Assembly: GCA_010093995.1 (NCBI GenBank)
Contig: ML992501.1
Span: 830,945 to 894,944 of the forward strand
Length of the DNA: 64,000 nucleotides
Origin: Elsinoe ampelina
Taxonomy: Eukaryota
Direction of reading: 5' to 3'
The translations under genes and the position numbers were made by a program. Numbering within the stretch: the stretch's first letter is position 1; every line of letters begins with the position of its first letter. Positions 191 to 8,925 of this stretch are shown here, piece after piece. The notes beneath the pieces were generated by a model. It had not been told where the DNA came from. It made no database searches and saw only the letters and a program-made list of their open reading frames with translations.

Positions 191-377
191 TATAAGGGCT
201 TAGTATTAGAGTGGCACTTAGTAGCGGCTAGTCCCGCTTACGTAACGTACTTAAATATCCTACGTAGCGCTTACGCCTAGGGCTTAATAGTAATTAGTTC
301 TACTACTAATAGACTATTTAGTTAGATAGGTATTCTCTATATTACGATATATATAGCTTTAATATAAGGCTTTAACA
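191..377 (+). repeat. 5' LTR of Gypsy element
   Basis: Starts TA (RIP-mutated TG) and ends CA. Differs from 6694-6880 at 9 positions, all transitions. Confidence 0.96.
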
Positions 378-466
378 GTTCTAATTACTCCCCTATAGTC
401 GTAATCTATTAGACTCTATAGACAACTAGAACTCTATTAGCAAGGCGCCTATACCTTGCATAAACA

Positions 467-3400
467 ATGTTATAGAGATAGACTCTATTAAGTAGACTTC
501 TCTAGAGGAAGAAGAAACTCTCGCGGAGTAGCTACTACACCTACGCGCTAAGTATAAGCGTTTAGAGCTAGAGCTTAAGGCTTAGAGCCTCGAGGAAGAG
601 ATTAAGTAAATATACTATATACACGATATAGAATACTACTAAGAAGGCTTCGACTATAGCTCGCGTGCTTCTACCGAGCCTATAGTAAGTAACGCTAGCA
701 CGTAAAGTATATATAGTAGTAGTAGACTATTTATAAGACTATCCTCTAGATAACCTTAACTAAGGGAACCTTATCTCTATTAGGGTAAGACTCTAAAAGA
801 GGCAAGATTCTTCCTAAAGAATCTCGAGGTTATCTTTACTCTAGCCTCTAAGGCTTACTCTACTAACTAGTAGAAGGTGCTATATAGAGTTATATTTCTT
901 ATAGGCGAGCTAGATAAGACGTAGTACTACTACTATTACGTAGATAGCCTAGAAGACTATATATAGGAGCAATTCTACTAGTTCGTATAGGACGTAGTTA
1001 ATAACTCTATTAACTATAGAGTGTATATAACTCTTATATACGAGGGTACCTAACAACGTAAGGGCTAATCTATCTAGGCCTTTACCTCGGAGCTTACTAC
1101 CCTCGAGGAGTAACTAGCTCTCTACTCTAAGGAGTAGAGAGTATACTACCTCCTTACTAAGCTATAGCCTACACTACGTACTACTATTATTAAACACTAT
1201 ACTATTCTAGCTATACGCTAGAAGTTAGTCTCTTTAGACTTATATATTAAGTCTATAGACTATACTAGTAGTAAGCGCGCTATATAAGAAGATAAAAGTA
1301 ACTACCTATATAAGTGTAGTAGTCGTAGTAGCCTCTAAGAAGAATACTACTACTAGTCCGGTAGTAGCTCTTAAGCTTACTATAAGTACGAAGCTACTAA
1401 CTTACCTACTAAATAGTTTAGTAGGTAGAGAGGTTTCTCCGACGAGTAAAAGAAGAATACTAAGTGCTATAGCTATAGTAAAACTAGTTATATTAAGCTA
1501 GAGTGTAGGTCGAGGCACTTATAGAGAAACTATAAGTCGTAGGCGGTACGCTAGGTTACTACCGGAGACAAGGTTAATAACCCTAAGCTAGTAAACTCTA
1601 AGAGCTTAGCTAGGAAGCACAACTAAGCTCTTCTTCTCTTCCTATCGACGCTTACCTATCGCTGCCCTATTATAGCACTATTATAGCGCCTATAGAGCGT
1701 AAAGACTACACGTTCCTTATAGACAATTATATAGAAGTTAATCTTATATCTTAGGCATTTACTCTTCGTCACGATTTGCTAAGGGTTAAGCACGCTTAGT
1801 ATCTAAGTATATCTTCCTTTATAGAGTAAGCCGGATTCTACTATAGTACGTACTAGCTTCGCGTATGTCTAGTAGACTCCTATAGTAACCTTAGGGAGAT
1901 AATCGACCTCTTCTACGCTATAGACTTAGGACTAGGCCCTCTAGTTATCTTAGGGCGCCTATAGCGAAGAAGATAATACGTAATTATAGATAGCACTATA
2001 GACAACTAGTCGTATAGCTGCTTCTTATATATAGTTTACTTACGCAAACTAGAAGACTTTATAAAGGACCTTAAGAATAAGCCGAGAGTATATACTATAG
2101 TATAGACTCTGTCTAAGGAGAGTACTTACGCTATAGGCGACCTAGCTCTTCCGCTAGAGTTTATAAAGTTCTTTAATATCTTTATATATAAGAATATTAC
2201 TAACCTACTATACCTACTAGGCGTAGAGTATGTAATTAAGCTAGAGCTAGGCAAGAGACCTCTATTCTAGCCCTTATATAATCTCTCGGTTAAGGAGCTT
2301 AAAGTGCTTAAGGACTATCTCGAGACTACTTAATTAAATAAGTAAATTAGGCACTCTATAAGCGAGGTAGGTACTTCTATCCTATTCGTGCCTAAGAAAG
2401 ACAGTAGTCTACGCTTATATATAGATTATTAGGGCTTAAACGAGGTAACTATTAAGAATTACTACTCGCTTCTACTTATTAGCGAGACGCTTAATTAGCT
2501 TAGGTAAGCCTAGTAGTTTTCGAAGTTAAATCTAAAGGATGCCTACTATAGAATCCCTATTAAGTATAGCGACAAGTAGAAGACTACGTTTCGTATATAC
2601 TATAGCTATTTTAAGTACTTAGTTATACCTTTTAGATTAACTAATGCTCTAGCTACCTTCTAAGCGTATATTAATAAGGCGCTAGGTAGGCTAGTTAACA
2701 CTATCTATGTCGTCTACCTCGATAATATTCTTATCTATAGCAATTCGAGGGAGAACTATATATGTTATATATATAAGATTCTAGTAAGGCTATAGAAGTT
2801 TACTTTATATACTAACCTTAAGAAATGTAAATTCTTTACTAAGGAGGTAGAATTCCTTAGCTATATTATCTCTACTATAGGCGTCTTAATAGATCCTAGT
2901 AGAGTAACTATAATTAAGAATTAGCTAAGGCCGAAGAGTTATTATAAGGTCTAGTAGTTTACTAGCTTTATAAACTTCTATTATTACTTTGTGTAGTACT
3001 ACTCTAAGATTATTGTCTCTCTCTCTAGTCTTCTTAAAGGCTTAGTTAAAGGTCGTAAGTATAGCTCTTTTATATAGGGCGTAAGCGAATAGTAGGCGTT
3101 TAAGGACATTAGAGACGCCTTTACACGTGCCTCTATTCTCCGTTACTACGATCCTACGCTACCCCTACGTATCGAAAGTAATATATTAAAGTTTATAGCA
3201 GTAGCGATCCTATTTTAACTATTTAATAGTACTTAGCACCTAATTGCCTTTTAGTCGAGGAAGTTTATTCTAGCTAAGTATAATTACGAGATATATAACT
3301 AAGAGCTATTAGCAATCGTATATGTATTTAAGTAATAGTAATACTACCTCGAAGGTGCCTTATATACGATTTAAGTACTTACTAACTATAATAATCTCCG

Positions 3401-5285
3401 AGGATTTATAAAGCTAAAATAGCTAAATAGCTAATAAGCTTACTAGGCTACCTTCCTTACTACTTTTAACTTTATAATAGAGCATTAGCTAGGTATAAGA
3501 AACCTAGCCGATACGCCCTCGAGGCGCCCTAACTATATAGCGGAAAAGCAAGAGGTATTATATCTCCTTTCTACTCTTTAGAATAAGCTTTGTATATAGG
3601 ACTAGACTACTAATATTAAGGAAGCTACTCCGCTTATTAGACATATCTACGCCACATATAAGGCTACTCTAGGACAGGCCTAGGCTACCTATACGCTATA
3701 TAGTAGCGACTTCTCTTCTAAGAACTTCTAGGGGCTTATAATAACCTAGCGAGTTATAGTTATAGCAACTATAAGAGAGAATCCCTTTAAAGATCTATCT
3801 ACTAACCTAATGTTAGTAGTAGAGCTACTATAGAGATAAGACCCTAAGATTATAAAGCTACGTTTATAAGCGGGGAGTAGTAGAGACAAGAGTAGAGCGC
3901 TATAGAATATATAAGATAATCTTCTCTTCTATAAAGAGTCGCTAGTTATTCCGAATAATAGTACACTTAAGGCGTAGGTACTATATATACACTATAATAG
4001 CGAATAGGCTAGTTACTTTAGTAAGGATAAGACACTTAAACTTCTCTTACGGAAGTACTTCTAGGCAACTATAAGGAAAGATATTAATAACTACATATAG
4101 TTATACTAAGTATGCTAGAAATATAAGGCGCACTACTATTGCCTCTATAGCGAGCTACGTACGCTACCGATACTAGACTACCTATAGTAAGAAATTATAA
4201 TAGATTTTATTACTAACCTACTACTAAGTAAGCGAGGTAGTAGCGTCTATAATACAGTGCTAGTGATTGTAGACTATTACACTAAGATGTTACTATATAT
4301 CTCTACTACTAAGAAGTACACGTCTATAGAGCTAGTAGAGATCCTACGTAACTACGTTATTCGCTATTATAGTGTCCTAAGAGGAATAGTAAGCGATCGA
4401 GGATTAGTCTTTACTAGCTAGTTCTAGAGTGAATTCTATTACGAAACGTGTATAAAGCGCAGGCTTAGTATAGCCTTTTACCCGTAGATAGATAGCTAAA
4501 CTAAGTAGCAAAACTAGATATTAGAATAGTACCTAAGGTGCTACTATATAGAGCTATAGAACGACTAGGCCGAACGTCTATTACAAGCGGAATTTATAAG
4601 CAATAATAGCGTTTATACTACGCTATATATAAGCCTCTTCTAAATAATATATAGCTACTATCTAGAGTTAGAGGTAATAGCTATTAAGTCTTAGAACAAG
4701 ACTTTAGAGGGAAGAGTACTAGTAGTAGCGGAGTTAGTATAACACTTATAAGATATATACGCGAAGCTAGTAGAGTAATAGAAAGAGGCTTCCGCCTACT
4801 AGGCTAAGTACTATAATAGGAAGCATATGCTAAGGGTATATAGCGTAGGTAACTTAGTGCTACTCTTAGCTAAGAACTTATAGCTACCTATACTAAAGAA
4901 GAAGATAGAACTATAATTCCTTAGCCTATTCTATATACTTAATATAATTAAATCGTAGGTGTATTGCCTAGCTTTGCCGAGTTAGTATTACATCTATAAT
5001 GTCTTTTATATATCTCTTCTCGAACTATAGATAGATAGAGCTAGTAAGGAGCTAGAAGAGAGTATACCTCTCGCTAACGAAGTAGATAAGTAGATAGTAG
5101 AGAAGATCCTAGGCAGGAGAACTATAAAGGGTAAGGTATTCTACTTAGTAAAGTAAAAGGACTAGCCTATTAAGTTTAATAGCTAGAAACTTAAAGAGAA
5201 TTACGTAAATATAAGAGAGCTAATCGCTATATACAAGTTATAGCCGAGAGTAGCTAAGAAAGGTCGCTAGAGGCGCGGATTATAG
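467..5285 (+). pseudogene. RIP-degraded gag-pol (gag, PR, RT, RH, IN, chromodomain)
   Basis: Recognisable motifs interrupted by many TAA/TAG stops derived from CAA/CAG/TGG. Ends are approximate. Confidence 0.9.
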
Positions 5286-5483
5286 AGTATATAAGTAGAT
5301 AGATTATATAAATACATAAATAGGGCAAAGAGTAGACTCCTTGTCTAGGGAAATACATTTTAATAAAGTACTACGCTTACGCTACTATTGTAGGTATTAA
5401 CCTAAACTCTATACTCTATTATGTTCTATATAAGGCCTTATTATAGGTATAGCACTAGAGATACGCACCTAGCTTATATACGC

Positions 5484-6320
5484 CTACTTATTCTTATTAC
5501 TATCCCCGTCTACCTCTATACTAAGATTCTCTCCTACGGGTGCTATAGGGGCTATAAGCTGCCTACTAGCTATAATATAGTTAATTTCGGCAGTGGAACT
5601 ACTAGAGTTACGTACTATCTAAACCTATTAGCTATATTTATAATGTATAAGGAGCGTAGTCTAGCTTACCTCCTTACCGATAGTAATTAAGCTATAAAGG
5701 CTATACCTAATCTTCTATAGCTTCTTAACCTTCTTACGCTCGAGTATAACACTACTAAGCAAGCCACCTATAGGCCCTATATAAGGAGTTAAGACCTCGC
5801 TAACGACCTTGTTCTTATTAGTGTAGTATACCTTAAGTATAGTCTTAAACTTCTTAACCTCGAGGACGTTCTTATAGGCTATAGTATATATATACTTCTC
5901 GGCCGTAGTAATGCCGGCCTAGTCGGGGGCCTTAAGCTTAGTAACTACGTTAAAGGCGTTAACGTATGTATTACGTAGGATAGATAGGAGCGGCTTGTAT
6001 ATATACTTACTATAAGCGTAGTATTTACACTTATAATAGAAGAAAATACTAAAGTTGCCTCTAGTATAGACACGACCTATTACAAATTAGTTATGTCCCT
6101 TATAAGAGCTCTATTAGCTTACCCTCGGCAACGCTATTAGTGTACCTAGTATAGGTATTAACCTCCTCCTTAAGAAGTAAGAGAGTTATAGAGTTAGCGC
6201 TAGTAGTAATAGCTCCCTAGGCGCTAGTAGACCTTACGCTACAAGTGTTAGCTATAGAGGGGCTAGAGTTAGATAATATAATAGTTATAGGTAGTACGCT
6301 TATATAGTAAGAAGTTAATA
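5484..6320 (-). pseudogene. RIP-degraded, spliced antisense accessory gene inside the Gypsy element; Zn-cluster-like protein
   Basis: Minus-strand introns at 6077-6122 (GTAAGC..ACTAAT..TAG) and 5619-5669 (GTAAGC..GCTAAT..TAG), plus a probable third at 6239-6303 (RIP'd donor..GCTAAC..TAG). The spliced frame is continuous apart from RIP-type TAG stops. 5' end approximate. Confidence 0.7.
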
Positions 6321-6693
6321 AAATATAGATGTATTTTAGGTAAAAAAGGAAAATATAAGGGGGAACAACAAGATTATATAGACTAACCTCTAGTACACTA
6401 TATCTTTGTTATAGCCGCTAGTATAAAACGTATATCTTCTACGATACTACTAGGAATTCTAAGAAAAGTAATATTGTTACTACCGATTCGCTTTAGCGCT
6501 ATAGTAACTAGATAAACGCCCCTCTAGGAACTAGATTCCTAGGACTACTACTACTAGACATTATATAAGACATATACTAGACCTTCGTAAAAATGCCTTA
6601 ACTATCTTATATCTATATTACTTCCGAATAACACTATATATTACACACTTCTAGTCGAGAGCTAAGGATAGCTCTCCTAGAGGAGAAGGCAAT

Positions 6694-6880
6694 TATAAGA
6701 GCTTAGTATTAGAGTGGCACTTAGTAGCGGCTAGTCCCGCTTACGTAACGTACTTAAATATCCTACGCGGCGCTTACGCCTAGAGCTTAATAGTAATTAG
6801 TTCTACTACTAATAGACTATTTAGTTAGATAGGCGTTCTCTATATTACGACATACGTAGCTTTAATATAAGGCTTTAACA
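6694..6880 (+). repeat. 3' LTR of Gypsy element
   Basis: Direct repeat of 191-377, preceded by the polypurine tract and followed by TSD ATATA. Confidence 0.96.
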
Positions 6881-6885
6881 ATATA

Positions 6886-8551
6886 TTAGTTATACTTTAA
6901 TATAACTAAGAAGAGTATTTTTCCTTTATAGCTAATCTCTATAGTTTAAGTATTTTAGTAGACTCTACTATTAATAAACCTCCTAAGGCTAACTAGATTA
7001 GTTATAATTAATAGTATATAGGCTACTTTTATAAGATAGATAGTTATAAACTTTCCTTTATAAAGAGCTATAATATTAATAGTTCTCTAACTCTTAATAC
7101 TAAGTAAGGTATTACTATAGAATAGCTTCTTATAAAGTTCTATAATTCTAGTAACCTTATATCTATCCTTTATAGTATAATTATAGATATAATTAGTTAC
7201 TCTAGAATCTAGTATCTATAAGCTTAAGATATTAGTAGTAGCTAAGATAAATACTAAGTGTAATCTAATAGTAATAGCTATATTAATTAACACTAGTAGA
7301 GTTAACTCCTTTTAATATTATACTTCCTTAGTAATAGAAGTCTTAATTCTCTCTTTAAGAGTCTTATTATTTAGCTTTTGTTTAACCTCCTTTATAGTCT
7401 ACTAGTTTAGTGTCTATCCTTCTAGCCTTAGATACTTATTTAAGTAATAGTACTTAATCTACTTATACTAGCCTTAGTATATATATTTAGGCTCTCTAGA
7501 GAGACTAGGTTTCTTATAAAGAATATTCTTAGTAGCTATAGAGAAAGCTATAGCTCCCTTACTAGCCTTTATAGTACTATATAGCTTATAGAGTTTATAA
7601 AACTGTTTAAACTTAGTAATTAGTTTAAGCATAGTTAGTAGAGTTAGTAAATCTAGATTAATAAGGTACTTGTTAGTAAATACTAGTTTAGCCTTTAAGA
7701 TAGAGAGTAAGAAGTCTCTCTATAGCCTTAAGCCTTAAGCTTCTAGTAGATTATAGTTCCTAGCCTTATCTATAACCTCTTCCTATTACTAAAGCTAATA
7801 GTCTATATTCTATAAGGAAGAGTTAGATAGCTACTTCCTCTAGAGTGCTTTAACCTTAAGCTAAATAGCTATATTAGATAGAGTAAATCTATTCTTTAAT
7901 ACTCTAAGAATAGCCTATAGATAAGGATCTCCTTCTAGTTAGATAATAGTAAGAACTTATAGTACAATTAATAACTAAATAAGGCTAGCTAAATTAGCTA
8001 AGGCCTTATACTATTTATTATATTATACTTATTTCTCCTTATATATCTAGAAGAGTACTAAAAAGTTAGTATTTACTACCTCTAGCCTTTAAGGCTTAGG
8101 AAGCCCTTCTAGTTTAATAATCTTCTAGGGATTAATAAGGTCCTATATCTTAGTATTTAATACTCTTATCTTAATAATATATAGCTAGCTAGCCTATTTA
8201 GCTAATGTAGTAAGAATAATAGGTGTTTTAGCTATTAAGGTATTAGTATCTATAGTTATTTATTTCCTTGTTAATACCTAAATCCTATAGTTATAGTTAA
8301 GGTAGTTCTTAATAGATTCTAATACTTAAAAAGTAAGATAGTAGAGAATTAACTAATAAATAGAGTAGGAAAGTAACTAAGTAATATACTTATATAGAGG
8401 TAGTTATACCGGGCTTATAACTATTAACTTATGTAGGGGAGGAAAAAAGGATTAATTACTACCTAAACTACTAAAATAAGGTAGATTATAACTATATAAA
8501 TACTTAACCTAGTATACTAAAAGATAGCTAAATTAAAAGAACTCCTTAATA
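6886..8551 (-). mobile_element. Ty1/Copia LTR retrotransposon, 5' part (LTR, PBS, gag, protease), RIP-degraded
   Basis: Minus strand: PBS GTTATAAGCCC (RIP'd GTTATGAGCCC) at 8411-8421; gag N-terminus ILTT..*..*L.IIK....I*DLINP ~8130-8220; Copia-type knuckle KYIY*G*YK*IKYYYLN..LR (C.C...H.W..C.YL) ~7425-7492; protease *ILDSRVTN (WILDSGA) ~7190-7220. Confidence 0.85.
8422..8551 (-). repeat. Probable 5' LTR of Copia element
   Basis: Abuts the PBS; termini TATTAA...TTAATA fit RIP'd TGTTGA...TCAACA. The partner LTR is outside the window, so the outer end is uncertain. Confidence 0.5.
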
Positions 8552-8925
8552 GTAGCAGATTAAGACAATAATTATCCAATTTGATCATAGATTAGTAAAA
8601 TAGTAAGATAGTGTTTAGTTCAACCTTGGGATGAACTGAATCAGGGTCTTCTTGGCGCTCCAGCTTATGCCTCGGTTGACAGGAAGGTTGGAGAGCTGGT
8701 TTCCCAAAGCAGCTGACAAAGCCATGGCTGTTTTTGGATTCTCATCCGCATCACGACCGTCATACTTTCTGTCAACCGTCAAAAGTCCCTCCACAGCCAG
8801 ATTGATTACACTGAGGGCGATTGACCTGCTAGCGTGGACTGCTAATAGTTTTTGCGTCAGGAAGAGCCACTCCTTTCTTTAGTTGCAGAACGTACCACCC
8901 AGGACGCATGCGCATCGTCGAGACC

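Follow-up and report, generated by a model that had tools for sequence, protein, structure and literature searches.

An antisense gene with two introns lies between the chromodomain and the 3′ LTR of a Ty3/gypsy chromovirus of Elsinoe ampelina, and it is carried by the whole family, as seen in the 30 subfamily A and 6 subfamily B copies examined. It was found in a 64,000-nt stretch of contig ML992501.1 (hereafter the window), where it is a dead, RIP-killed copy, as are all the copies in this genome. The brtn gene of the Boty elements is an earlier example of the kind, and what is added here is an intact orthologue with a fixed cysteine pattern, together with the apparent exchange of the cassette that carries the gene. 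No antisense accessory gene of an LTR element has yet been assigned an established role, and standard transposable element annotation passes over genes like this one on account of their antisense orientation, introns and RIP damage.

The host element and its two-intron antisense gene

Positions 191–6880 of the window are occupied by one RIP-mutated Ty3/gypsy chromovirus (Table 1), recognized by its LTRs and target-site duplication, the order reverse transcriptase-RNase H-integrase and a C-terminal chromodomain. The LTRs, of 187 bp each, were 95% alike, their 9 differences over 187 sites being all transitions, and the 5-bp target duplication flanks the element on both sides. With stop codons read as X, pol matched the Pfam models RVT_1, RNase H, Integrase_H2C2 and SH3_Tf2-1, and the Chromo match at the integrase C-terminus reached 23.5 bits against a cut-off of 25.1 in this RIP-damaged copy. 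The RIP indices of the element were about 2 for TpA/ApT and about 0.2 for (CpA+TpG)/(ApC+GpT), the flanking genes having values of roughly 0.5 and 1.2. The 3′ region of the element had 45 matches in its own genome, and 30 of these loci, the window included, formed the subfamily A sample, 83–89% identical to the window and differing nearly always by transitions (in one example, 154 transitions versus 3). A second search of the same genome yielded the 6 copies of the diverged subfamily B. RIP damage was present in every copy analysed.

Table 1. Coordinates of the chromovirus, its antisense gene and associated features within the window
Feature	Position	Strand	Basis or remark
5′ LTR	191..377	+	LTR pair comparison; preceded by the 5-bp target-site duplication
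RVT_1 reverse transcriptase, RIP-broken	2388..2870	+	Pfam E 2.5e-21, with X at stops; RNase H follows
Integrase HHCC zinc finger	3960..4130	+	Pfam; serves as internal control for the loss of Cys and His to RIP
Chromodomain, end of pol	5094..5237	+	Pfam E 5.3e-5, below the curated cut-off
3′ accessory cassette	5300..6690		A versus B 7–30% transversions; LTR/gag/pol 0–5%
Last exon	5484..5618	-	Short helix and acidic tail; stop codon matches the end of the intact orthologue
Intron, 51 nt, phase 0	5619..5669	-	50-nt counterpart at the matching place in subfamily B
Main exon	5670..6076	-	Cys sites 3–6 and helical region; blocks FK..LK...TNKNK and EKV.EL.KIRR conserved
Six-Cys cluster, C-x2-C-x9-C-x12-C-x2-C-x6-C	5997..6153	-	Codons 6153, 6144, 6068, 6029, 6020 and 5999; interrupted by the 46-nt intron
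Intron, 46 nt, phase 1	6077..6122	-	Subfamily B: matching length and place, conserved signals, diverged interior
Upstream coding exon, provisional 5′ end	6123..6238	-	Cys sites 1–2; TAG codon 6219 in 30/30 copies
Proposed third intron	6239..6303	-	Possibly coding or 5′ leader sequence instead
Candidate core promoter of the antisense gene	6340..6380	-	TATA-like word, then pyrimidine tract (22/25 C/T), in both subfamilies
Candidate cis-element, non-coding block	6400..6519		0/120 transversions A versus B inside the diverged cassette
3′ LTR	6694..6880	+	LTR pair comparison; preceded by a polypurine tract

The sequence-only reading of this region had described two clean introns and a probable third on the minus strand. 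When both strands of the 6.7-kb element were scanned with a strict donor, branch and acceptor pattern, the only two matches were the 46-nt and the 51-nt introns. Because two strict matches were also reached by 18 of 500 shuffled versions of the 1.4-kb region, the pattern by itself is suggestive, and it is the conservation across copies that is decisive. The donor GT was kept in 29/30 subfamily A copies for the 46-nt intron and in 30/30 for the 51-nt intron, and the acceptor YAG was kept in the same proportions (29/30 and 30/30). Moreover, an intron of 46 nt was found at the matching place, with its signals kept, in 6/6 subfamily B copies. Comparing the two subfamilies by purine/pyrimidine class, 11 of 23 interior sites of this intron differed, along with none of the 5 donor sites and 1 of the 18 sites from branch to acceptor. 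The 50-nt counterpart of the second intron was present in the 4 B copies examined, 2 of which had GT. With their splice ends so kept and recurring in subfamily B, both introns stand as first described, and the spliced frame reads as it had been quoted.

The third intron could not be upheld, since its donor was non-GT in 30/30 copies and the frame stayed open through it without splicing. By its branch-like word and its YAG the stretch stays a candidate intron. A RIP-tolerant version of the intron pattern turned up one or more times in 239 of 500 shuffled sequences. In 2/6 subfamily B copies, an in-frame ATG was found within the corresponding stretch, which may be part of the coding sequence or of the 5′ leader instead of an intron. 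Scored against the first 16 residues of the intact orthologue, the read-through frame exceeded the spliced one in 18/19 copies, but the matching segment ranked outside the top 6 of 2,780 segments, and the score was not taken to place the start codon.

The antisense frame of the main exon had 2 majority-stop codons in 134, whereas the other five frames had 6–36. Besides codon 6219, TAG stops were found at codons 5921 and 5717 in 30/30 copies and at codon 5561 in 27/30. Such fixed stops in the antisense gene are normal for the family, as can be seen from the integrase region, where 44 codons are majority stops and 26 of these are stops in every copy. In the main exon, the insertions and deletions between the two subfamilies comprise complete codons. 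A short duplication in the main exon of one B copy (L038) shifts the antisense frame.

An intact orthologue with six cysteines

From 17 natural exon readings an alignment profile was built, which found two matches among 1.84 billion proteins. One of them (P0001) was rejected as a tandem-repeat artefact, and the other, at E 2e-15, was KAF4546987.1, the only intact orthologue found in that collection. This is the hypothetical protein D9617_77g092410 of Elsinoe fawcettii, intact, of 213 aa and encoded on an 18-kb contig. It aligned to the spliced window copy with 35% identity over 141 residues and no gap across the first junction, the alignment ran into the last exon, and both sequences ended at the matching place with an acidic tail. 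In relation to the RIP-damaged copies as a whole, it is about 30–35% identical and has equal cysteine spacing and end point, differing from them in being intact. KAF4546987.1 is a true orthologue of the antisense gene product, and it gives this family, of which nothing but RIP-ruined copies had been available, an intact natural member.

The cysteines of KAF4546987.1 are at positions 31, 34, 44, 57, 60 and 67. The spacing that had been predicted by reversing RIP in the window (C-x2-C-x9-C-x12-C-x2-C-x6-C) is therefore exact in the intact protein, and the inference of six cysteines holds because of this identity. It was also confirmed that a single one of the six is unmutated in the window, at codon 6029. 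KAF4546987.1 has, after its six cysteines, a helical central part and then an acidic tail with a net charge of -15 over its last 30 residues, in agreement with the acidic tail claimed for the window copy. The basic patch, likened to a nuclear localization signal, fared only in part: it is present in the window, but it was inflated by RIP, the lysines of the window being glutamates in other natural copies and in KAF4546987.1. The orthologue reads EKVKELQKIRR there and has no clear signal, so that the localization reading was set aside.

The cysteine sites were compared in 19 gap-free A copies and 4 B copies (excluding 11 A copies that had indels, and 2 B copies), and each cysteine of KAF4546987.1 was opposite tyrosine or cysteine in 19/19 A and 4/4 B copies. 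Among the 30 A copies, cysteine was present at two of the six sites (4/30 and 9/30), and the other four sites were tyrosine in 30/30. Loss of cysteine from every copy at four sites is to be expected, since the known HHCC ligands of the integrase, used as a control, survived in 4/27, 0/28, 0/28 and 8/28 copies.

In the E. ampelina genome, KAF4546987.1 matched 38 element copies, all 38 bearing stops, and no intact host copy was found among these matches. This result bears on the least probable of the readings weighed here, that of a captured host gene hitchhiking without benefit to the element. The annotation of the intact orthologue as a hypothetical host protein agrees with capture, but the 38/38 broken matches in this genome speak against it. 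Moreover, two alleles that are only 37% identical both keep the introns, the frame and the cysteine sites, which needs long selection within elements, and transduced genes are usually in sense orientation and of low copy number, according to the accessible text of PMC7264820. Outside this genome, homologue searches with KAF4546987.1 recovered only itself among 1,476 candidates of 117–373 aa and nothing among 2,577 candidates of longer proteins, while 69 viral and 596 metagenome contig pattern matches included none confirmed as a homologue.

Cys-rich zinc domains can bind RNA, and the product might have a structural or trafficking role in RNA export, packaging or nuclear import; alternatively, the antisense RNA itself might be the regulator. 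Both options are discussed for antisense ORFs in the accessible text of PMC7264820. Taken together they are very unlikely here, as conservation at the protein level across three lineages argues against an RNA-only function, and no feature specific to RNA binding was observed in the protein.

As to the class of the protein, GAL4-type clusters have an invariant x6 first loop with basic residues that contact DNA. The term Zn(II)2Cys6-like, applied to the window copy, stands loosely, in that six cysteines are arranged in two C-x2-C pairs, the second half (C-x2-C-x6-C) has basic residues, and helices and an acidic tail follow the cluster, as in GAL4-type proteins (PF00172). It fails in the first loop, which in KAF4546987.1 is x9 and has neither Lys nor Arg, so that the canonical spacing pattern is not matched. 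Likewise, the proposed HMM comparison with Zn2Cys6 domains gave no Zn_clus (PF00172) match to KAF4546987.1, and the identical model gave 114 matches in the host genome. By its sequence, the element protein is accordingly not to be read as a canonical Zn(II)2Cys6 domain.

The x9 loop recalls DUF3716 (PF12511), a fungal domain that occurs on transposons. Two of the three DUF3716 proteins examined in the host genome (L053 and L055) share the C-x2-C-x9-C start, and KAF4546987.1 fits their spacing C-x2-C-x9-C-x(9-15)-C-x2-C-x(6-8)-C, a fit of spacing only. The DUF3716 HMM gave no match to KAF4546987.1 above the cut-off, and pairwise comparison with the host DUF3716 proteins gave no significant match. 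In the ESM Atlas, KAF4546987.1 fell near an ascomycete cluster of 157 members (score 0.94); its proximity to a cluster in which 28% of the members are DUF3716 proteins (score 0.75) is a weak lead. A PDB sequence search with KAF4546987.1 returned 0 matches, and Pfam searches with the 17 RIP-damaged exon readings returned chance-level matches only. The hits of KAF4546987.1 to Imm5_like (E 0.013) and GrxA (E 0.063) in Pfam and NCBIfam were far below the cut-off and were dismissed. Two AlphaFold models reached pLDDT values of 43.5 and 44.2, too poor to carry structural weight, both sketching helices after the cysteine region, and the prediction of a homodimer with zinc scored 0.02. The six cysteines are predicted to bind two zinc ions in a non-canonical, DUF3716-like x9 cluster.

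The resemblance to DUF3716 gives some ground to the view that the gene is cargo acting on host physiology or development and not on transposition, in the manner of REP9-1 of Zymoseptoria tritici. REP9-1 and REP9-2 are DUF3716 genes carried by the Class II element REP9, and REP9-1 alters pycnidia number, as described in the available portion of PMC8232023. The C-x2-C-x9-C start of the host proteins and the Atlas cluster, a lead only, point in the same direction. This view is quite unlikely, given that KAF4546987.1 has no DUF3716 HMM or significant pairwise match and that a position and orientation fixed in both subfamilies fit a function for the element better. The host genes examined for this comparison, L053 and L054 (G000 C12 and C4) and L055, are intact and unRIPed. 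Downstream, L053 and L054 share sequence that is almost identical, a hint that this unit was duplicated, or is mobile, and was spared by RIP.

A divergent 3′ cassette on a common backbone

The relation between the two subfamilies was measured by transversions, to which RIP is blind. Per 250 bp, the window differed from two B elements (L031 and L032) by 0–5% transversions in the LTR, gag and pol, and by 7–30% from about position 5250 to 6750, whereas the cassettes of the two B elements differed from each other by less than 1%. In the integrase, median transversions were 0.55% within A, 1.6% within B and 1.3% between A and B. The A and B proteins are 37% identical, and they are 30% and 32% identical to KAF4546987.1, all three values being lowered by RIP. 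Two old cassette alleles thus sit on one young backbone, and recombination is the simplest account of this; the cassette would be a module exchanged between near-identical backbones, probably via template switching in co-packaged RNAs.

When L031 was compared with L032 and the window in the gag and integrase bins, patches of 4–6% transversions alternated with bins near 0%, a pattern suggesting that backbone lineages have recombined into mosaics. Upstream of its reverse transcriptase, L031 is missing about 200 bp.

The contrast between cassette proteins only 37% identical and backbones nearly alike also bears on a different reading, in which the product is an anti-silencing factor directed against host RNAi or heterochromatin and the deep split between the cassette alleles stems from an arms race with the host. 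The heavy RIP silencing imposed by the host is in line with such a conflict, and zinc binding with an acidic tail would also suit a chromatin-acting factor. Nevertheless, old divergence followed by a swap gives a like pattern without positive selection, and the codon-position test of selection was not significant, fixed A/B transversions falling at 32/176, 39/178 and 46/178 sites of the three codon positions (p 0.22). In addition, no similarity to known suppressors was found in the Pfam and PDB searches, and an anti-silencing role is considered unlikely.

Within the diverged cassette, the invariant block at 6400–6519 lies just upstream of the TATA-like word and pyrimidine tract of the candidate core promoter, both of which were present in all 12 aligned copies. 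The block is a candidate promoter or binding site, or else a recent conversion tract. It is this block that counts as evidence, and not the TATA-like word, because TATA-like words are common in RIP DNA. A second invariant stretch (0/37 A/B transversions) was observed at 5440–5479, just past the stop codon.

Relation to known antisense genes and proposed role

The gene belongs to the kind of antisense accessory gene of LTR elements represented by brtn and the aORFs-3R. In the available text of PMC7264820, PMC8365987 and PMC4227169, the Boty elements of Botrytis and Sclerotinia carry the antisense gene brtn between pol and the 3′ LTR, and the parallel with brtn that the sequence-only reading had drawn was borne out in this layout. 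Boty is likewise a fungal Ty3/gypsy element with a chromodomain and a family-wide extra gene; the likeness noted is one of layout, and the same portions of these articles report for brtn neither a six-Cys cluster nor a cassette exchange. The plant aORFs-3R (Grande gene23, RIRE2, Retand and PvRetro13) are similar in position, orientation and presence in most copies, as well as in the own promoter and nuclear regulatory role proposed for them, but they encode other products (SMC-like, Transposase_28), with no six-Cys cluster described in the accessible part of PMC7264820. According to the same part, plant elements and Boty have been described as carrying antisense genes that possess a promoter of their own and whose products are nuclear. 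Nothing on fungal antisense genes was found in the available text of PMC3248453 and PMC11963269. For the six-Cys protein family, no description was found among the open-access papers listed by the literature search.

The reading favoured here, with moderate confidence, is that the product would be an element-encoded zinc-binding nuclear regulator that tunes the transcription of its own element. The antisense gene would be a third, element-owned gene of the fungal chromovirus, killed by RIP in this genome, and it would be transcribed from its own promoter at about 6340–6520. Its introns would stay in the genomic RNA and survive reverse transcription, because introns on the antisense strand are not spliced from that RNA. 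The layout of zinc cluster, helices and acidic tail would suit a small nuclear DNA- or chromatin-binding regulator, which might act on cis-sites of the element itself, either in the LTR or in the conserved block.

If the protein does regulate or protect the element, fungal retrotransposons would encode trans-acting regulators, much like complex retroviruses. In a broader and rather doubtful extension of this idea, fungal chromoviruses would have exchangeable 3′ cassettes comparable to retroviral accessory modules. The two split alleles of the x9 six-Cys zinc protein would then regulate via the cis-block or shield the element from silencing, and conflict with the host would drive their swapping. 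The family displays two cassette alleles on a single backbone, together with a short non-coding block, invariant between them, that may be a target or a promoter.

The surroundings of the element provided two further observations. Just before the start of the window, a neighbouring element of another family with 467-bp repeats (L056, about 6700–7300) has an intronless antisense ORF with the spacing Y-x2-Y-x6-Y followed by a charged helical stretch; kinship of this ORF to KAF4546987.1 was considered and rejected, tblastn giving no match at E 10. On the other side, a second AT-rich, RIP-mutated stretch (6881–8560) directly abuts the 3′ LTR and is followed by ordinary gene DNA, and the chromovirus was probably inserted into this older repeat.
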